A stretch of DNA of 64,000 bases from Bacteroidetes bacterium 2013_40CM_41_45 (GTDB lineage Bacteria; Bacteroidota; Bacteroidia; AKYH767-A; 2013-40CM-41-45): contig NGFH01000002.1 of assembly GCA_002215675.1 (NCBI GenBank), positions 76,975-140,974 on the forward strand, given 5' to 3'. Position 1 is the first letter of the stretch. Every line of letters starts with the position of its first letter. Below are positions 2,565-21,901 of the stretch, piece by piece. The notes under the pieces were generated by a model that saw only the letters and a program-made list of their open reading frames with translations, searched no databases and was not told the DNA's origin. Both the position numbers and the translations under genes were made by a program.

Positions 2565-5500
2565 ATGAAAATCTTTAAAGCCTTAACTTTATTATTGCTG
2601 TGCTTTCAATTAGCAAACTCCCAAACTATAGTTGAAGTCACAACTCCTGACATTCGATTTTGCGCAATCAATAATTGTGAGCTCGAAGTACAAAATAGTA
2701 GTAGTTCTTCCGTAACTTTTACTTTAGAGATAGATTTAGATGCATACCCTTATCCTTCAGCGCCAAGCGGCAAAGTAAAATTTGATACTCCCGCTTCCTT
2801 TTTTTTAACCTGCGCTGGATTGGGTATTCCTTCATTCAATCCTGCCCGAACTATTGCAACAGTTAGTATAAATCTTGCTCCAACTTCCACTTGTACCCTT
2901 TCTTATCGTGTGATTCCCACGACTTTGGCTATAAGCAGTCCTAATAATTTAAGAAATACATATGAAATAAATACCGTTAATGTATCGGCATCAGAAATTT
3001 TTTACAATGCTTTATTTCCAACAAATCAAATTATCTGTTCAAACCCAATCGCTAACGATGCTCATTTTATAGGCGAGATCTTCATGCGTGAATTACAGTT
3101 TACGAATACGAGCGCATCAGAGATAATGGACAAACCAATTAAGTTTACCGATACGAGAAGCAGTCTTGACAACCCCACCTGTATTCAAGTAACCGGAGTT
3201 AATTATTGGGATAATACATCTTCGAGTTGGCTACCCCTCTCCATGACAATAAATCCTTCTCCAAACAACCAAAACTTTAATGATTTTACTTTAACCGCAG
3301 CCGATATTAGTACAATTGCAACGGCAGAGCAATTATCTGGTAATGTATTTGGACCTGCGAGTTCTATAAGACTACAATTGGTTTATGAAGTTACCTGTTG
3401 CTTTACCAGCTTAATTACGTCTAGTTTTATGGCAACCTGGGCTTGCAATGTATCAGACCCAGCCATATATCAATATGGACCAGTGTCTAATTTTCCATCT
3501 TCCTGTAATTCCAATACTAGTTTAACTCTCCAAACAAATCCCGTTTTCGGGATACCTGATTTGGATGTTACAAGTTCTAGTATTGATAATAATTTTTGTT
3601 ATGGAATTGATCATACTGCAGATGCTACCGTAACAATAACTAACAATGGAACTGGACAAGCATCAAATATTGCATTTAATATTGATCAAGGTTCGAATAG
3701 TTTTACGCACATTATAGAATCTTTTCAGATTTCTTACAATGGAGGCCCTGCAAGTTCTATTACTCCAACTTTCCAAAGTGCCGCATATAGCAATGCTTGT
3801 GATGCTCCTGGAACGCACCACACTCGAATGGAATTTGCAATTCAAGCATTAAATGCGGGCGAGTATGCAACTTTGACGTGGCAAGACAGAACGTGCGCTC
3901 CAGCTGCAACCTGCCCAAGCGGTTCGCGTCTTAAAGATTCGTGGGGATACAAATTAAGCTTTGAGGATGATTGCGGAACTACATATCCGCCTTCAGCTAA
4001 TTATAGTAACTTGTTTAACGTCCAGAATCTTGGAAGTATGGTTACAGAATATAACGGCTTGTCGGATATAGACGATAACGTAGTTAACACTGCTTCCATT
4101 GATTTAAGTTCTGTTGCGGGTTTATGGCCAGCGGCTGATGAATCTACTAATAACAGGAGACTTGCTGTCGAAATTACATTGACCAACGATTTGATTTTTG
4201 AGCCAGCGTGTCCAATATCAAATAGCACCGGAACAATTCAGCTCTATTTATTTCCTAACTCAGTGTTCAATAACTCTAATATCTGTGTGACGGCTTCTCC
4301 TTATTCGCCTAGCAGTGTAACGGTGGTTTTCCCTTCTCCACCCCCGTGTTCAACGGGGACTTCAAAGACAATCCGTGCAGAATTTGAAATTGATAATTTC
4401 GGAACATGTAGTTTTGGTAACACGCTCAATGGCTTACACAATGCAAAATTGACATTTACATACAAAGGATTATGCGGACAGCCATTTCCTTTGTCAATGG
4501 ACCATATTACTGTACATGTGTTTTTTGTTCCAGACCAATCCTGTACTAATCCTGCAGATTTATTAGTTGGCTGCACAAATGCAGATGTCGGATTGCATTG
4601 TCCCGGTTGCATAAGAAAGGGTCTTCACAGCTTAGGTTATAGCATTCAAAGGGGACCCAACTCGTATGGCTGGCAGGATTGTGATAATGATAATTGGTGG
4701 GATCCTGATAACTCTTCAGGAAATGTACCAAAGGTCATTGATGCAGTTTACCGAGCAGCACATCCTTTTATAAAGACAAAGAGGGCAATGGTGGGTGATT
4801 TAATAGAAGGAGTTTTAACCACCAAGGTAGAGAATAATAGTAATTATGGACCAGTAAACACATCTTTGACTTTTACACATGCTTATTGGAAATCTGAATT
4901 TTCTCAGGGCGATGGAAATTTAACCCCTGTTGAATGTGAGATAGTTTTTACTCATCCTACTGACCCAATCTTTTCGCCTGGGCCGGTGACAATTATTATT
5001 CCCGCTACCGATTTCAATCCACAATCTTCATCTCCTGCAATAACATATAACATTGATTTCAGCATTAGCAGATGTAGTACGTTATTCAACCCTGCTTTAA
5101 ACCCCGGGTATTCATCCTTCCCAATTACCGATTTTATCGACAAGTTAGAGATTAAATTGATTCACAGATTTAGAGTTACTGGGAATGTGGGAACTACTAA
5201 TTTGCCATGTAACGTAACTAACACGGCATACCTTGGCTTAACTGCTGAAAGTGCAGGTTTTAATTTTTTAGATGATCCTGATAGTCCTACTAATCAAGTT
5301 CCAGCAATAACAACTCCGCCTGATCCACATCCACTCGACTATGACGCTTACTGTGCTAATCCAAACGGATTTCCTCCTTGCACTGATTTACAATGGTATT
5401 GTACACATTATAATGGCACGTTTACGTTGATTGGTTACGTGTTTCTTCCTTGGAGTGTGTCATCAGGCAGTGGCACCTACGATGTAGCATGTGGTCACCC

Positions 5501-13047: not shown

Positions 13048-13080
13048 CAGCCCGATGTAAAAATCGGGCTGTTTAATTTT
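13048..13080. terminator. Bidirectional intrinsic terminator between convergent genes
   Basis: Hairpin cagcccgat-gtaaaaa-atcgggctg, flanked by an A-run on one side and a T-run on the other. Confidence 0.6.
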
Positions 13081-13975
13081 AAGCAGGTACAGAAGAATTC
13101 TCTTTTATGGAAGAAGCTATTTCCTTCGGCTTGGTATTTAAAATGTAATCAACTGCTTTCTGCGCTTGCACGCTTGCATAAACAATAAAACGTTTATCGT
13201 TCTTCAGCCGTTCCAACCATCCTTGAATGTAAGCTGCGCTGTTTACAATTTCCACTGCAATTCCTGCCTGAGATTTAAGATAGCATGCTCCAATTTCAGC
13301 CGTAAGCTCCTCTATGGAATATAGTTCTGAGCCGTAAGGTTTGGAGTCCATAACTTCCTTTCTGTTCAGCCGATTTGCATGTCCAGTGCTATGCACAAGC
13401 TCATGAAAGAGCGCTCCATAATAGCTTGCACTGTCTTTAAAGCTTTTTATTCTGGGCATATTAACGTAATCCATTACTGGATGATAATATGCTTTCTGCT
13501 CCTTGTGTACAATTTTCGGTCGCATCTGCATAGCTTTTACAATCTCCTCACATTCTTCAATCGGATCGTTAGGCTTTTCTACCAATGGAATTTTTTCAAT
13601 TGGTATATGCTCGCACTGTGCGATGTTGAAGACCATGTGATAGCGGAGAAAAGCTCTTTTAACGGTCTCTCCGGTTTCTTCATTCTCTTCGTCAACCCAT
13701 TTCCAGAAGACAACGATATGCGCCTTTTCACCTTTGATAACTGTGCCGCCAAGCTCCTTTAGCTGCTTGAAGGTTAAAAAGTAATTTAAAGGATAATCCT
13801 GTAAGGCGAGAAGCATTACATTAATTCCCCGGTACGGTCTACGGGTAATAAGATTCTGCGGAACACCGGCTTCCGTCCATGGCTTTTGCCAGGGAACTTT
13901 GTTCTGCTGCAGTTGTTCGATGATTCTTTCTGTGACGATTTGATAAACGTCTTTTTTTGCTGTTGCTGTTTCCAT
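13079..13975 (-). CDS. ardC: ArdC-like antirestriction protein (DUF1738 N-terminal domain + zincin-like metalloprotease domain)
   Basis: N-terminal ssDNA-binding-like domain (WQKPW...GINVMLL). C-terminal HExxH metallopeptidase motif (FHELVHSTGH). This architecture is typical of conjugative and mobile elements. Confidence 0.7.
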   Translation of the reverse strand: METATAKKDVYQIVTERIIEQLQQNKVPWQKPWTEAGVPQNLITRRPYRGINVMLLALQDYPLNYFLTFKQLKELGGTVIKGEKAHIVVFWKWVDEENEETGETVKRAFLRYHMVFNIAQCEHIPIEKIPLVEKPNDPIEECEEIVKAMQMRPKIVHKEQKAYYHPVMDYVNMPRIKSFKDSASYYGALFHELVHSTGHANRLNRKEVMDSKPYGSELYSIEELTAEIGACYLKSQAGIAVEIVNSAAYIQGWLERLKNDKRFIVYASVQAQKAVDYILNTKPKEIASSIKENSSVPA

Positions 13976-14364: not shown

Positions 14365-14432
14365 CGGGGAAATGTGTTCCCCGCAAGATAGCAAAGTGAG
14401 CGTCCAATGGTGACGGTCACTTTGCTATCTTG
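14365..14432 (-). terminator. Tandem hairpins downstream of the 14446..15765 gene (cgggga/tccccg, and a perfect 16-bp stem caagatagcaaagtga / tcactttgctatcttg)
   Basis: Perfect 16-bp inverted repeat with a 17-nt loop, immediately 3' of the stop codon on the minus strand. Confidence 0.5.
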
Positions 14433-14445
14433 CTATGCGGGCCTC

Positions 14446-16631: not shown

Positions 16632-16653
16632 TGTATTGTATGTTTATTTGTCA

Positions 16654-16686
16654 GCCTACTCTTTGGCAGGATTTTCGGCTTACTCC
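16654..16686 (-). promoter_or_regulatory. Conserved 33-nt upstream element, copy 1 (minus-strand sense GGAGTAAGCCGAAAATCCTGCCAAAGAGTAGGC); 23 nt upstream of the start codon of 16161..16631
   Basis: Near-identical copy at 17351..17382 in the same position relative to another start codon. Contains the internal direct repeat GAGTA(A/G)GC. Confidence 0.45.
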
Positions 16687-17087
16687 TATTTTTCGATATA
16701 TTTTTGCTCCTCATAGTTATCTGAGACAATGAGAGGGCAAACAGCGCATGCATCTGCACCGCTTTGATAGTACCATCTACAATCCGAACGGATGCCACAT
16801 TTAGGTAATCTTATTTTTACACTTATCCTTTCTGACTGCTCCATAACAGCTTCGATAATGCCGCATCCATTTCCCGTCCATTGCCTGCACCCGTTTTCTG
16901 CACAACGATTTGAGAAGCGAAATCTTTTTTCAGGTGATCGACCTTTGTGAGCAGTTGCAATAAACTCTTTAGTAACAGGTAACGGTTGCGATAGGAAGTT
17001 AACTGTACCCTGTGCTGTCACAATACCTATCACCTGAGCACCCTCATCACAGACAGCACTTGGGCATGACTTTTTTTCTTCTTCCAT
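16686..17087 (-). CDS. Cysteine-rich hypothetical protein (133 aa; 9 Cys including C-x4-C and C-x2-C pairs), possibly metal-binding
   Basis: SCPSAVCDEG...CAENGCRQWTGNGCG...KCGIRSDCRWYYQSGADACAVCP. Three-nucleotide gap to the upstream 79-aa gene, which suggests translational coupling. Confidence 0.5.
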   Translation of the reverse strand: MEEEKKSCPSAVCDEGAQVIGIVTAQGTVNFLSQPLPVTKEFIATAHKGRSPEKRFRFSNRCAENGCRQWTGNGCGIIEAVMEQSERISVKIRLPKCGIRSDCRWYYQSGADACAVCPLIVSDNYEEQKYIEK

Positions 17088-17090
17088 TCC

Positions 17091-17330
17091 TTACCGAACC
17101 TTGAATTGGTTAAACGTTATGGAGTTCTTCAGCGCATCTGAAGTTCTGAAACGCTTCAACCAAATTCCTAACCATTCTTTTTTGGGAATTCTTTTGGCGC
17201 CCCAAATTGCGCCCAGGTCAATTTTTGCTACATGTTTTGAAACTACTGCCTGGATGTCTTTGTTAATTGCAGCTTTCTGTGCATTACTTAGTGGTATGTC
17301 CAACACCACGTTAAATCTTGTTGTTGCCAT
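17091..17330 (-). CDS. Hypothetical small protein, 79 aa
   Basis: ORF preceded by copy 2 of the conserved 33-nt element and coupled to the downstream Cys-rich gene. Confidence 0.45.
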   Translation of the reverse strand: MATTRFNVVLDIPLSNAQKAAINKDIQAVVSKHVAKIDLGAIWGAKRIPKKEWLGIWLKRFRTSDALKNSITFNQFKVR

Positions 17331-17350
17331 TTGATTTAGTTTTATATGTC

Positions 17351-17382
17351 GCCTACTCTTTTCAGGATTTTCAGCTTACTCC
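17351..17382 (-). promoter_or_regulatory. Conserved upstream element, copy 2 (minus-strand sense GGAGTAAGCTGAAAATCCTGAAAAGAGTAGGC); 21 nt upstream of the start of 17091..17330
   Basis: 28/32 identical to copy 1 and in the same position relative to the start codon. Confidence 0.45.
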
Positions 17383-17436
17383 GTTGAATAAAATGTAATT
17401 TTATTTAAGATTAATAGTTCAAGGTCGCTATTCATT

Positions 17437-18252
17437 TCATCGTTCTTCTTCAGGTAAAGCACGTCCAAGCATGTGGATAACAGCTGCATTAGCATTTTGA
17501 TAATCGCGGCAAAGTTTTGCCATGAAACAACAGAACACAAATGCTGCTGCTGCAACTAGCAGAATAATTACTGCATGAATATTCTCAGCAGGAGTTAAGG
17601 AAGAATTTTCTATTGGATTGCCTCCATCACGGAAAGGAGAATGAAAAACAAACATTGATAAAATATCTCCAATGAAAATAGTAAGAATAGTTGCGGCCGG
17701 AAGAAAGTAGAGCGATGAAAAAAGTGCCCTTGGTAATCTCCTTATGTTATTTTCATTGCTTGGAGCCGGTTGTAGTGAGTCTATCGGTCGGTCATTTTGT
17801 GTAGTGGTCGTGAATACCTGTAACGAAGTCACTCCATTGTAAATATATTTCTTAATGGCCATATTTGGCTCGTTGTTCGCTAACCTTAGAGCTTTTGCAA
17901 TCACATGATTTTCTCTCCTAAAAGAATAATATAAAAACAAAAACATGATTGTAATGATAAAGGAACCAAGTAGGCCTGCATCGGCTACATGAAATTTTAT
18001 TCCCAACACTGGCATTGTTATGAATGAACTGTCTATCCAGTCCTGAACAAGTTTTTGTTGGTTAGACATTGTTACTGCTTCACTCGACCATTTATTCATC
18101 AGAGCAAAACCTCTTAACCATGAAAAGTAAACATTAAATGCCGCAATGAATATTGATAAGCACAGTGTAACGAGTATAGACAACACCCATCGCGAACGCC
18201 TTAGAGATGTCTGCACTGCATTGATAAAGAGTTTTGCTAATTCTAAATCCAT
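17437..18252 (-). CDS. Polytopic membrane protein (about 272 aa from the MDLELAKLF start). The ORF track extends it to 18435, but that extension runs through an upstream repeat array.
   Basis: Several hydrophobic helices (VLSILVTLCLSIFIAAF, LGSFIITIMFLFLYY, AVIILLVAAAAFVFCCF). The N-terminal extension would translate the TAGGGTTTTCCCTA repeats (TRENP x2), so the internal ATG at 18252 is preferred. Confidence 0.5.
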   Translation of the reverse strand: MDLELAKLFINAVQTSLRRSRWVLSILVTLCLSIFIAAFNVYFSWLRGFALMNKWSSEAVTMSNQQKLVQDWIDSSFITMPVLGIKFHVADAGLLGSFIITIMFLFLYYSFRRENHVIAKALRLANNEPNMAIKKYIYNGVTSLQVFTTTTQNDRPIDSLQPAPSNENNIRRLPRALFSSLYFLPAATILTIFIGDILSMFVFHSPFRDGGNPIENSSLTPAENIHAVIILLVAAAAFVFCCFMAKLCRDYQNANAAVIHMLGRALPEEER

Positions 18253-18318
18253 TATTCTGTGAAAAAATTTGTTAATCCAAAGACGGCTGTAAAGGAATAT
18301 ATAATTTTTTTCATATCC

Positions 18319-18394
18319 ATTAGGGTTTTCCCTAGTTTTTTGATCCGAAAAAAGTTTAGGGTTTTCCCTAGTTTGCATTAGGGTTTTCCCTAGT
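18319..18394. promoter_or_regulatory. Three copies of an 18-bp unit containing the palindromic core TAGGG-TTTT-CCCTA (putative operator array) upstream of the membrane-protein gene
   Basis: attagggttttccctagt at 18319, 18355 and 18377. Each core is an inverted repeat with a 4-nt spacer. Lies 67–142 nt upstream of the preferred start codon at 18252. Confidence 0.45.
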
Positions 18395-18630
18395 ATTTTT
18401 TTTACACAATTTTTCCAACAACCAGCTGAAACCATTTAAGGACAAGCATTTCAGAGTTTTTTATACTGTTGTCATTGTCGGGAAGGGGTATGGGAACTTT
18501 TAATTGTTTATGATTCCAGAGTATTTTTGGAAATAATTTTTGATCAATATTAAATGGGAAGCTGAAAACCGAATAGAATAGGCAAACAAAAAAGTGCGGA
18601 GTCAGCACTATAATCACCGACAACCCTATT

Positions 18631-19212
18631 ATGAAACATTTTAAGAAAAGTCAACCAATCATTTTTTGTTTGATATTAAAGCCTAGTATGTGGATAGGAG
18701 TTTACTTCTTCCTAGTTAGTTTATTATGCTTATCCTGTCGCCACCAAACTGCTGAAAACAATGATGAATTACTAAATATTGAAATGGGAAATGATTCAAT
18801 ACAAATTAGTATGAATATTTTACCAAATCAAATGGGGAAATTTGAGTTTAAAAATAAATTTTTTGGTATAATTCCTAGAAAACTAACAGAGAGTTTACAA
18901 GAGCAGGAAATTGAATTTTATATTATTGACGCACCAACTTTCAAACTAGAGGAATTTACTATTGAAAATATTAAAAAGAAAAAATTAAACTTGAGCGCTC
19001 CTAAAAAAATCTCTTCATTCGTGCAACTGGAGCGAGAATTAAATTTGTTAGATTTAGGAATTGACAATGTTACAGTGGTTGCTAAAAAAATAGATGCAAG
19101 TGTGAAAAATGGTAAATTGACTGTTAAAGATTTGGACAATAAGACTACAACAGAATGTACTTGCCCATGCAGCGTAACATTTGATGATAAAGTAAAGGTT
19201 AGTTGTGACTAA
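18631..19212 (+). CDS. Putative lipoprotein, hypothetical
   Basis: Hydrophobic N-terminus with lipobox-like LLCLSC. Lys-rich. Confidence 0.45.
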   Translation: MKHFKKSQPIIFCLILKPSMWIGVYFFLVSLLCLSCRHQTAENNDELLNIEMGNDSIQISMNILPNQMGKFEFKNKFFGIIPRKLTESLQEQEIEFYIIDAPTFKLEEFTIENIKKKKLNLSAPKKISSFVQLERELNLLDLGIDNVTVVAKKIDASVKNGKLTVKDLDNKTTTECTCPCSVTFDDKVKVSCD

Positions 19213-19565: not shown

Positions 19566-19736
19566 ATGGAAAATTTAACTGACAACAATGCTCTTGAGAC
19601 TTTGTCTTTAGATGCAATTGATTCGCTTGAGATTTCAGAGGCTACAGAAATCATCAGCCAAGTTGAATCAAACACGAAGTGGGAAGACACTTCAAAACAC
19701 ATTACTCATAATGGTGCGGGCATGAATTGTCCGTAA
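19566..19736 (+). CDS. Small acidic peptide (56 aa; MENLTDNNALETLSLDAIDSLEISEATEIISQVESNTKWEDTSKHITHNGAGMNCP); candidate precursor peptide; not in ORF track
   Basis: ATG..TAA ORF with its own intrinsic terminator 40 nt downstream, sitting directly upstream of the HExxH/methyltransferase fusion gene. Leader-like acidic N-terminus and a short Cys/His/Met-containing C-terminus. Confidence 0.35.
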   Translation: MENLTDNNALETLSLDAIDSLEISEATEIISQVESNTKWEDTSKHITHNGAGMNCP

Positions 19737-19837: not shown

Positions 19838-21901
19838 ATGAATAAACTTTTTCTAAATACAGCGACCGACCGTAGCAGAAAGTTTCACATCTTGAAATTA
19901 AAAACTGTTTTTAGCAAACTTCTTACTCTTGATAAAGAAAACTACTTTGAAAACTCAACTCAAAATTATTTTTCGTTCCTAAGCAAAATCAAAGCAGCAA
20001 ATTTAATTGAGCACAGCACAGATTTTTTTTGGAGTGTGGTTCACAGAGTAAGCAATGTACTTGACAAGAACAACAAAGATGAAATAGAGAAAACTTACAT
20101 CTACTTTCTTTTAAATTCATTTGATTGTTTTTACTCACTACTTCCAATTAATTCCCAACTTCAATTCAAAGGAATTGGGAGTAATGATGTCATACTGCCA
20201 AAACTGGGTCTTTCTTTAGGCTGTTACCTTGACAGCAGTACAACACTTTGCAAGGTTAGTGATACCTCCTTAAGTTATAAACTGAAAAAGTTTGATAGTA
20301 TTCCCGATAACAATTATCTAATTTTCCTCAATGAAATTCCCCAATGGTTCAAGCTAAAACAGGAAATTGTTTGCCAACGGATTTCAGTTATCTCTCAAAA
20401 GCATGAAAGCATTTTTGAAGAGCATTATTATAAAGACTGCTGTGAAAATATTTTTCTATCACACTTATTAAAGCAGAAAATAGACAGAGCATTTGAAATA
20501 ATTAAATTAACTGATATTGATTTGTATCACAAGTTAATTTCTTCAATTGACTATATAATTCCGTATGGGAACGACATTGAAAAAAAATATCCAAACTTTG
20601 CAATTGCGACACTGAAAAAAACTATATTTCTTTCTATTGACTTGCTTTCAGAATCAGACATTCATGTAGCCGAGTGCATAATACACGAATACAGCCATTG
20701 CGAATTACACTGCGTGCAAGACACAATATTGCTGACAAATATTGAGAACAATATTTTGGAGTATTACTCGCCTTGGAGAAAAGATCCCCGCCCATTGTTG
20801 GGACTTATTCATGCAATTTATATTGGTAACGAAATTCTGACGTTTTACTTTACATATCTGCAGAATAGAAATAATAATTCTGACGAAATAATATCGGTTA
20901 GAAAAAAGGTAGAAATTATTGTTCACCAAATTATTATTGCCATAAGACAAATAAAAAAATATCAATTAACTGATTTTGCATTAGAATTGATGAATAGTAT
21001 TCTAAAATCAACTCACGAAATTGCCGAACACTTATCAATTTCTACATCAAATCCACTAGAGGAAATAATTAATCATATTCAAATTTGGAAATCAAATAAT
21101 CCAAACGCAGTTATTGTTGAGAAAGAATTTAATCCATACGAAAATTCAGCTGACTTTTACGACCTTGATTTTACTGGACCTCAATATGAGGATGTTCAAT
21201 TTTATTTAGACCTAGTGAAGCAACATTGCAATGAAGTTCTTGAATTGTGTTGCGGAACGGGTCGAATAACAATCCCAATTGCCAAAAACAATATTAGTGT
21301 TACCGCAATTGACGTCTCAAAAAAAATGCTATCCATTTTTAGAAATAAATTAAAGCAGGAGCAAAGCGAAGTATCCAGTCGAATTAATTTAATTGAAGCA
21401 GACATGGTGAATTTTTCTTTAAGCAAAAAATTCAACTGTATTCTAATTCCCTTCCACTCTTTTCAAGCGTTGACCGACACTTCTCAAATTTCACAAGCAT
21501 TGAAAACAATCTTTCAACATTTAACCGATGAAGGAGTTTTTATTCTCAACTTATTCAGACCGCTTGACGACATGAAAGGGTTGGAAGGTGTTTGTGAGTC
21601 AAAGACCGTTACCGATGACAATGGTGAAATTATCTACAAAAAAAATTGCATCAACACATTTGTTGATACTTCACAGCAAGTTATTTACTACGAGTTACAA
21701 TACTTTCCTATGAACCAAGAGAACGAAGGCCGATGTGTAATTGAAAATCTAAAAACAAAATATTATTATTCAGGTCAAATAAGAGAAATTTTACAGCGAC
21801 ATAATTTTAATATTGAAACAGAATATTACGGGTTTAAAAATGATTCCGCTGATAAAAACAGTTCAGCAGAGTTGACTTTGATATGTAAAAAGAAAATTTA
21901 A
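19838..21901 (+). CDS. Fusion protein: N-terminal HExxH-motif domain (~430 aa) + C-terminal class I SAM-dependent methyltransferase
   Basis: HExxH motif at IHEYSHCELH. Methyltransferase motif I VLELCCGTGRITIPIA, post-I acidic residue (TAIDVS) and motif II (FNCILIPF). Confidence 0.6.
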   Translation: MNKLFLNTATDRSRKFHILKLKTVFSKLLTLDKENYFENSTQNYFSFLSKIKAANLIEHSTDFFWSVVHRVSNVLDKNNKDEIEKTYIYFLLNSFDCFYSLLPINSQLQFKGIGSNDVILPKLGLSLGCYLDSSTTLCKVSDTSLSYKLKKFDSIPDNNYLIFLNEIPQWFKLKQEIVCQRISVISQKHESIFEEHYYKDCCENIFLSHLLKQKIDRAFEIIKLTDIDLYHKLISSIDYIIPYGNDIEKKYPNFAIATLKKTIFLSIDLLSESDIHVAECIIHEYSHCELHCVQDTILLTNIENNILEYYSPWRKDPRPLLGLIHAIYIGNEILTFYFTYLQNRNNNSDEIISVRKKVEIIVHQIIIAIRQIKKYQLTDFALELMNSILKSTHEIAEHLSISTSNPLEEIINHIQIWKSNNPNAVIVEKEFNPYENSADFYDLDFTGPQYEDVQFYLDLVKQHCNEVLELCCGTGRITIPIAKNNISVTAIDVSKKMLSIFRNKLKQEQSEVSSRINLIEADMVNFSLSKKFNCILIPFHSFQALTDTSQISQALKTIFQHLTDEGVFILNLFRPLDDMKGLEGVCESKTVTDDNGEIIYKKNCINTFVDTSQQVIYYELQYFPMNQENEGRCVIENLKTKYYYSGQIREILQRHNFNIETEYYGFKNDSADKNSSAELTLICKKKI

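Follow-up and report, generated by a model that had tools for sequence, protein, structure and literature searches.

The preQ1-I, SAM-II, and guanidine-III RNAs are minimal H-type pseudoknot aptamers, and pseudoknot ligands of ribosomal protein S1 have been obtained by systematic evolution of ligands by exponential enrichment (SELEX). The Escherichia coli tisB mRNA, studied in 2020 by Romilly and colleagues, reportedly carries a standby-site pseudoknot. DUF805b is an RNA family of Rfam (RF02914, Cis-reg, clan CL00115) whose presumed origin is a comparative screen in which Weinberg et al. 2017 (NAR 45:10811) proposed 224 candidate structured RNAs; no function is assigned to it. The main text of that paper does not discuss DUF805b, and a full-text literature search by motif name and by sequence strings gave no useful later paper. 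We analyzed a 64-kb stretch of contig NGFH01000002.1 of Bacteroidetes bacterium 2013_40CM_41_45 (hereafter, the window), in which a 33-nucleotide (nt) element precedes small-protein genes of a minus-strand cluster. Judged by its match to the Rfam model, this element is almost certainly a DUF805b RNA.

Family membership and RNA fold

Two near-identical copies, of 33 and 32 nt in the minus-strand reading, were found at the places given in an original prediction made from the window alone: GGAGTAAGCCGAAAATCCTGCCAAAGAGTAGGC at 16686..16654(-) and GGAGTAAGCTGAAAATCCTGAAAAGAGTAGGC at 17382..17351(-). Their 20-nt core, GGAGTAAGCYGAAAATCCTG, occurred exactly twice in the window, at 16667-16686(-) and 17363-17382(-), a number reached in 0 of 100 dinucleotide shuffles, and GAGTAGGC lies 3′ of the core at 16654-16661 and 17351-17358. 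When the window was scanned against Rfam 15, both copies exceeded the curated gathering score of RF02914 (35.6 bits). A third copy at 18553-18584(+), missed by the original prediction, scored below it. The Rfam consensus, AAGGcGGAAgCCGAAAAgCCUuAAaAGAGUAGGcA, has a 4-bp stem around a 12-nt loop, and the window copies match it in sequence and in hairpin: a short stem, which covaries over 133 sequences, closes the loop GGAAGCCGAAAA and is followed by single-stranded AGAGUAGGC. Host and position agree as well. The DNA is from Bacteroidota, with neighbors in the window carrying the Por_Secre_tail domains of the type IX secretion system (T9SS), and the copies lie in sense orientation upstream of protein genes. 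The ATGs are 22 nt (156-amino-acid [aa] gene) and 20 nt (79-aa gene) downstream, rather than 21 to 23 nt as first proposed. Association with DUF805 (PF05656) was not observed, as the 79-, 133-, and 156-aa proteins have no Pfam domain. DUF805 is found downstream of only 3 of 107 sampled members of the family, so that DUF805b is a historical name and the association is no requirement for membership. The window element is a plain member of a family that is already catalogued, with its function unexplained.

Some 250 additional copies, taken from genomes of Bacteroidota and from viral contigs, were compared. Further copies, on which the original prediction depended, were numerous: the seed pattern AAGCYGAAAA-N5-10-AGAGTAGGC was found at no fewer than 120 loci in Bacteroidota genomes (one genome per species) and at no fewer than 120 in viral contigs. 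Compared loci are labeled by L-numbers (e.g., L089). Cellular matches spanned Bacteroidales, Flavobacteriales, Sphingobacteriales, Chitinophagales, Cytophagales, and Saprospirales. Copies were often grouped, with up to six in a single 8-kb locus, each before its own gene. We built our own covariance model from 130 family members, aligned 133 copies with a model-based alignment, and listed 129 copies.

The loop and the 3′ tail of the element showed compensatory changes, and the element therefore very probably folds as an H-type RNA pseudoknot. From 5′ to 3′, its predicted parts are the first strand of stem P1 (3-4 bp, free sequence), loop L1 (RRAA), the 5′ strand of stem P2 (GCY), loop L2 (GAAAA), the 3′ strand of P1, loop L3 (a variable linker of 0-8 nt followed by AGAGUA), and the 3′ strand of P2 (GGC). 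The three innermost P1 pairs were Watson-Crick or G.U in 89-98% of the 129 copies listed, with identities that varied freely; the innermost pair was GC in 57, AU in 37, CG in 23, and UA in 4 of them. In the alignment of 133 copies, all four P1 pairs showed double changes and 91% of cells were paired. The covariation score of P1 was 0.40, compared with 0.12 in 500 shuffles, none of which reached 0.40, and did not exceed 0.08 with slid partners.

P2, which joins the loop triplet GCY to the terminal 3′ GGC, was 99.5% paired, and neither the 500 shuffles nor the slid controls came near the values of P1 and P2. Its bases are fixed by the seed pattern, and the informative copies are about 35 variants found nearby by the covariance model, with the six positions treated independently. 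Compensated P2 helices among them were GUC/GAC (L016:3669 and L003:7053), ACU/GGU (L057:7770), ACC/GGU (L061:6682), CCC/GGG (L048:6261 and, weakly, L025:3857), GGC/GCC (L048:2019), and GCU/AGC (L208:2480 and L132:2358). The middle P2 pair in the tabulated alignment was CG in 129 cases and UA in 2, with no single-sided changes. Distances between the conserved blocks were spread evenly over 5-10 nt.

Both window copies fit this scheme. In copy 1, P1 pairs 16684-16687 with 16668-16671 (AGGA/UCCU) around the loop GUAA-GCC-GAAAA, P2 pairs 16677-16679 (GCC) with 16654-16656 (GGC), and the conserved AGAGUA occupies 16657-16662; P1 contains the stop codon of the upstream gene C (UAG, 16688-16686). In copy 2, P1 pairs 17380-17382 with 17365-17367 (GGA/UCC), and P2 pairs 17373-17375 (GCU) with 17351-17353 (GGC), with U.G in place of C:G. 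The original prediction had offered a conserved 5′ untranslated region as an alternative to protein-binding sites in DNA, and that alternative is supported: both copies belong to a cis-regulatory RNA family, and covariation points to an RNA fold. The check for RNA structure that it proposed was positive in covariation and negative in nearest-neighbor folding stability. Thermodynamic support was absent, with folding z-scores near 0 (-0.45 to +1.0 against shuffled controls), and support for the fold comes from covariation only. The z-scores suggest that a partner is needed, and the fold probably requires tertiary contacts or such a partner.

At four unrelated loci (L032, L039, L095, and L115), AGTAGGGAG stands directly 5′ of P1 and thereby repeats the AGUAGG of the 3′ tail ahead of the hairpin. 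This 5′ AGUAGG may offer the loop GCC another partner to pair with, or it may provide a second site for recognition.

Position, genes served, and mode of action

The start codon lies at a preferred distance from the element. An ATG of an open reading frame (ORF) of at least 40 aa was found 13-24 nt after the GGC in 71% of cellular copies listed, compared with 5.9% of random positions in the same loci. The distance had its mode at 20-22 nt in cellular copies and peaked at 18-23 nt in viral ones. Across the family, the spacer contained 2-7% G and had no conserved positions. No fixed-distance promoter box was found upstream of the element, where the region is merely A-rich. In 44 of the 110 phage copies listed, the stop codon of the preceding same-strand ORF was -4 to +9 nt from P1, as it is in window copy 1. 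Because these copies abut an upstream stop, the element would appear to work inside polycistronic RNA, independent of being at a 5′ end.

The genes served were diverse. The 107 cellular downstream proteins had a median length of 135 aa, and about half carried an N-terminal hydrophobic signal. They included 58 Pfam families, among them DUF6520 (7 cases), outer membrane protein beta-barrels (4-6), DUF805 (3), and SnoaL or DUF4440 (3); most had no family, and several were GG-leader or cysteine (Cys)-rich peptides. Among 95 genes downstream of phage copies, about 16 encoded proteins with a ParB-like nuclease domain; the others encoded DNA methyltransferases, HNH nucleases, and small proteins of no known kind. 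A role as enhancer of highly expressed phage structural genes was considered and is unsupported by this gene list. Clustering of the ORFs of 120 loci gave no recurrent neighboring gene for a trans-acting factor, only background families: response regulators (13 of 120), SusC/D, and a MauE/DoxX-like protein linked to DUF6520.

Two further observations concern particular leaders. Those of DUF6520-family small secreted proteins (L001, L002, L003, L082, L088, L104, L111, and L120) carry an extra module between DUF805b and the ATG, which consists of AAAGTTTT and a hairpin NNNCTTTTTGA...TAAAAGNNN and pushes the ATG to 46-61 nt. A gene for a MauE/DoxX-like membrane protein recurs in these loci, and in those of them scanned at the Rfam gathering threshold DUF805b was the sole family. 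The best-scoring copy is carried by crAss-sized phage contigs, namely L135 (6697-6847(-)) and about 12 similar 100-kb viral contigs (3300045988_*). In L135, a TTG 15 nt downstream of the copy shares its frame with a 50-aa ORF that lies a further 102 nt away, with a single TGA in between; this layout may point to recoding of stop codons in these phages or to a non-coding role of the motif.

How start codons are chosen without Shine-Dalgarno (SD) pairing is understood only in part in Bacteroidota; the determinants recognized so far are A-rich positions upstream and a low degree of structure. Initiation regions of F. johnsoniae show reduced structure from -20 to +20, and bS1 has been proposed as the reader of the upstream A-rich segment (Baez et al. 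2019, PMC6847099). The low-structure zone begins at -20 (PMC6847099) and the predicted pseudoknot ends about 21 nt before the AUG; the 3′ end of the pseudoknot thus lies at the upstream border of the ribosome landing zone.

That the element acts at translation initiation is reasonably likely. Taking all parts together, we lean toward reading DUF805b as a pseudoknot in the mRNA leader that acts on translation initiation of the adjacent cistron and serves as a portable, gene-independent module. The element would be transcribed within the mRNA leader of the gene directly downstream. The pseudoknot, ending about 21 nt before the AUG, would stand at the 5′ edge of the -20 to +20 stretch that Bacteroidia ribosomes would need unstructured, and would influence initiation of one cistron by interacting directly with the 30S subunit engaged there or with bS1, a protein of that subunit. 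Its role could be that of a docking site, a standby site, or a boundary element; ribosomes of this phylum skip SD pairing. Such a module would be portable and gene independent and would function inside polycistronic mRNAs (copy 1 and the phage operons), rather than being a regulator site specific to Cys-rich genes. Direct docking of the ribosome or of bS1, as opposed to a regulated switch, is put forward tentatively. We rank a constitutive docking, standby, or boundary module slightly ahead of a sensor or operator because of the spacing rule, the functional heterogeneity of the genes served, the intercistronic and phage use, and the absence of an expression platform. A more specific version, in which the pseudoknot binds the Bacteroidia 30S platform or bS1 and sets the start codon 21 nt downstream in the P site as a structured, SD-independent docking module, is improbable as it stands. 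Complementarity to 16S rRNA gained no support in a limited comparison, which had no Bacteroidota rRNA to draw on and gave a 7-mer of no significance as its best match.

Several points weigh against a module that acts on initiation through a pseudoknot. No ATG-initiated ORF lies at the customary distance from the best-scoring phage copy (L135, 55.7 bits). P2 is just 3 bp long, and one of its pairs is broken in three or four variants (L039:1031, L075:4275, and L148:897). Eighteen nucleotides outside the helices are invariant and nominally unpaired, which resembles a ligand or protein pocket. The collection was seeded by a fixed pattern and so gives a narrowed view of variation. None of the 95 phage downstream genes encoded capsid or tail proteins, and no housekeeping or highly expressed genes were seen downstream; such a pattern would be unexpected of a pure enhancer and suits a conditional regulator just as well. 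Finally, the evidence for such a module is sequence-based throughout.

The explanation that survives best beside a constitutive module is that the same pseudoknot is a sensor, either a minimal aptamer of preQ1-I-like size and topology or the operator of a phylum-wide RNA-binding regulator. Binding of the ligand or protein beside the landing site would stabilize an otherwise marginal fold there and turn translation of a scattered regulon on or off, and phages would exploit that regulon. The 18 invariant positions and the marginality of the fold on its own speak for a sensor, as do the element's absence from housekeeping genes, its enrichment before small secreted, stress-like, accessory, and phage early-type genes, and the frequency with which neighboring genes each have their own copy. 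However, no conserved alternative pairing, expression platform, or terminator was visible, the spacer lacks conserved positions, and the downstream genes show no functional coherence. There is also no recurrent neighboring regulator gene, the response regulators being at about background, and orthologues gain and lose the element. On this evidence we regard a sensor as somewhat unlikely.

RNA processing or stability is a much poorer candidate. The transcript would be cut upstream, and the pseudoknot would shield the new 5′ end from 5′-dependent decay, which would suit intercistronic sites, often right after a stop codon, and the several copies per operon. A stabilizer, however, needs neither a fixed distance of 20-22 nt to the AUG nor invariant loop and tail sequences, and the fold is weak, so that we consider such a role very improbable.

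The original prediction had favored tandem sites for one regulator on the strength of an internal direct repeat, GAGTA(A/G)GC. The repeat is present in both window copies, with the proposed 24-nt spacing in one copy and 23 nt in the other. The 5′ half-repeat, GAGTAAGC, was found in 6 of the 129 copies listed, where the consensus is GGAAGCC, and thus did not hold up across the family. The half-repeat in the window is apparently a coincidence of local P1/L1 sequence (GGAGU) with the conserved AAGC. Recognition at the DNA level, by a transcription factor at two GAGTARGC sites or by an alternative sigma factor, can draw on the two octamers in each window copy and on the rarity of the canonical TAnnTTTG box (within 110 nt upstream in only about 17% of copies listed, at scattered distances), but it is exceedingly improbable, because the first octamer lies in a freely varying, complementary stem that covaries, a block spacing that ranges over 5-10 nt can be reconciled with neither a sigma-type promoter nor a rigid tandem operator, double-stranded DNA recognition leaves the loop-tail compensatory changes unexplained, and phage copies abut the preceding ORF.

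Gene cluster, third copy, and second leader element

Coordinates of the DUF805b copies and associated features are collected in Table 1.

Table 1. DUF805b copies, spacers, downstream genes, and second leader element in the window
Feature	Coordinates	Strand	Remarks
DUF805b copy 1	16653..16688	-	Predicted leader of gene D (156 aa, secreted, Cys-rich); RF02914 39.8 bits, own model 44.4 bits
Spacer, copy 1 to ATG 16631	16632..16653	-	22 nt; G-poor, A/U-rich (1 G)
Gene D, 156 aa	16161..16631	-	Signal peptide, Cys-rich C-terminus; served by copy 1; annotated hypothetical protein
DUF805b copy 2	17350..17384	-	Predicted leader of gene B (79 aa); RF02914 42.2 bits, own model 44.8 bits
Spacer, copy 2 to ATG 17330	17331..17350	-	20 nt; G-poor, A/U-rich (1 G)
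Gene B, 79 aa	17091..17330	-	First cistron of copy 2; no family assigned; 96-aa homologue in L089 with motif upstream
Gene C, 133 aa, Cys-rich	16686..17087	-	ATG 3 nt after gene B stop; no element of its own
DUF805b copy 3, divergent	18553..18584	+	Predicted leader of lipoprotein-like gene 18631-19212; opposite strand to copies 1 and 2
Second leader element, GUGCGGAGUCAGCACUAUAAUCAC(C/U)GAC	18594..18621	+	Between copy 3 and ATG 18631; not part of DUF805b, composite leader with it

The original prediction had deduced co-regulation of a set of small Cys-rich or secreted proteins from the two minus-strand copies. This idea is weakly supported in that B (with C) and D share a leader and that the layout of copy, B, C, copy, and secreted protein recurs in L089. 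It does not extend further: four other genomes (L243-L246) have the B-C pair and no DUF805b, and elsewhere the genes that follow the element represent no fewer than 58 unrelated Pfam families and, in phages, include nuclease and methylase genes. An element specific to the B-C-D gene family was ruled out by the same four loci. Since orthologues of B-C carry the motif in L089 and lack it in L243-L246, the element appears to have been gained and lost independently of the genes it serves.

The B-C pair itself is a conserved two-gene module in several Chitinophagia genomes, with overlapping or abutting ORFs and no Pfam or NCBIfam assignment. The gene C family comprises 20 clusters, all annotated as hypothetical. 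Its 133-aa member in the window has a conserved Cys pattern, RFRFS..C....C.QW ... C.R..CRWY.Q.G..AC..C, which suggests metal or iron-sulfur binding.

Copy 3 has the tail AGAAUAGGC, the loop GAA-GCU-GAAAA, and a P1 of 2-3 bp. In a permissive scan it reached 22.2 bits with the Rfam model (expectation value [E] 0.004, below the gathering score). It was counted as a genuine, divergent member of DUF805b because our own model from 130 family members gave 28.9 bits (E 7e-9). The ATG at 18631 lies 46 nt 3′ of copy 3, and a second conserved element, GTGCGGAGTCAGCACTATAATCAC(C/T)GAC, starts 9 nt after the copy (18594-18621) and fills part of this gap. A homologous composite leader, with counterparts of copy 3 and of the second element, stands ahead of an unrelated gene in L110; there the second element occurs at 3196-3219 and 4076-4099, and one of these occurrences has no DUF805b.

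The exact 24-mer of the second element was present in at least 119 metagenome contig stretches (also L247-L367) and once in viral contigs. It lay exactly 13 nt before an ATG in 83 of the 112 cases listed, and 12-14 nt before it in 107 of the 112, and the genes 3′ of it were very diverse. A canonical TAnnTTTG box is often found about 22 nt upstream, so the second element is expected to be transcribed; about one third of cases are preceded instead by a DUF805b copy, often degenerate. Two inverted repeats, GTGC..GCAC and GTCAG..CTGAC, overlap within the element, which also has a perfect TATAAT. A pseudoknot fold was considered for it and is unsupported, as variants in the putative 3′ strand were not compensated and no covariation was seen. 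Rfam scans and a full-text literature search gave no match. By its sequence and spacing, it appears to be another position-locked leader module, one not yet catalogued. Its novelty may exceed that of the DUF805b finding itself, and it deserves follow-up. If the docking reading of DUF805b is true, DUF805b and this uncatalogued element (GUGCGGAGUCAGCACUAUAAUCACUGAC, 13 nt from the AUG) would form a family of modular leader cassettes.

Other features of the neighborhood were recorded. At 18318-18399, in the divergent intergenic region ahead of the first gene of the minus-strand cluster, which encodes a membrane protein, there are three direct copies (about 16-24 nt) of CTAGGGAAAACCCTAA(T/A), with start-to-start distances of 36 and 22 nt. 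Each is a palindrome, TAGGG-N4-CCCTA. These repeats inflate a 332-aa ORF call, whose real start is probably the ATG at 18252. They resemble operators of a dimeric regulator and are a better candidate than DUF805b for transcriptional control at the level of the cluster. At the other end, just downstream of the 439-aa gene that ends the cluster, a near-perfect inverted repeat at 14383-14433 (22-nt arms, 95% complementary, 7-nt loop) is probably the terminator.

A pair of genes resembling those for ribosomally synthesized and post-translationally modified peptides (RiPPs) adjoins the cluster. It consists of a 56-aa acidic peptide ending in ...THNGAGMNCP (19566-19736(+)) and a 687-aa fusion protein (19838-21901(+)). 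The fusion joins an aKG-HExxH-type peptide beta-hydroxylase domain (TIGR04267, E 6e-16) to a methyltransferase related to those of daptide-type RiPPs (NF041820, E 1e-32, below cutoff). At 13079-13975(-), a 298-aa protein has ArdC-N and MPTase-PolyVal domains (Pfam), an anti-restriction type typical of conjugative elements, so that a mobile element may carry or adjoin the small-protein cluster. The region is flanked by giant proteins of 2891 and 3572 aa with T9SS tails.

Comparison with known systems

For the window, the result is mostly a clarification: what had been proposed as a new regulatory element is a catalogued orphan RNA motif and defines no Cys-rich regulon. For the phylum, a predicted pseudoknot found throughout it at 21 nt from the start codon, and also between cistrons in its phages, is a concrete candidate that is easy to test, either as a structured signal for initiation or as a switch that governs translation globally. 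If modular, the element would be a useful expression part for engineering Bacteroides and Flavobacteria. The RF02914 covariance model annotates the 4-bp hairpin only; the loop-tail pseudoknot, the 21-nt spacing, and the heavy phage use come from this analysis.

DUF805b resembles aptamers of the preQ1-I type in its length of about 35 nt, in a loop that pairs with a short 3′ tail through a P2 of 3-4 bp just upstream of the initiation region, in its many invariant unpaired nucleotides, and in a fold that is marginal without a partner. It differs from them in having no sequence similarity or Rfam match to those families and no gene set coherent enough to point to a ligand. In addition, its L2 has 5 nt (GAAAA), and it does not overlap an SD sequence or start codon.

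With the tisB standby site and the S1 ligands, DUF805b shares, putatively, a 5′ pseudoknot beside a single-stranded stretch that helps SD-independent loading of 30S or S1. The tisB case, in contrast, concerns a single gene, with a standby site about 100 nt from a sequestered ribosome-binding site, whereas DUF805b is phylum-wide and fixed at 21 nt from the AUG.

The SD sequence offers a functional analogy only. Like it, DUF805b is a short, gene-independent, position-locked upstream signal that serves unrelated genes and phages and also occurs between cistrons. Unlike it, DUF805b has no demonstrated rRNA pairing, is found on a small minority of genes, and is a structured element of 35 nt that occupies -22 to -56 rather than -5 to -13.

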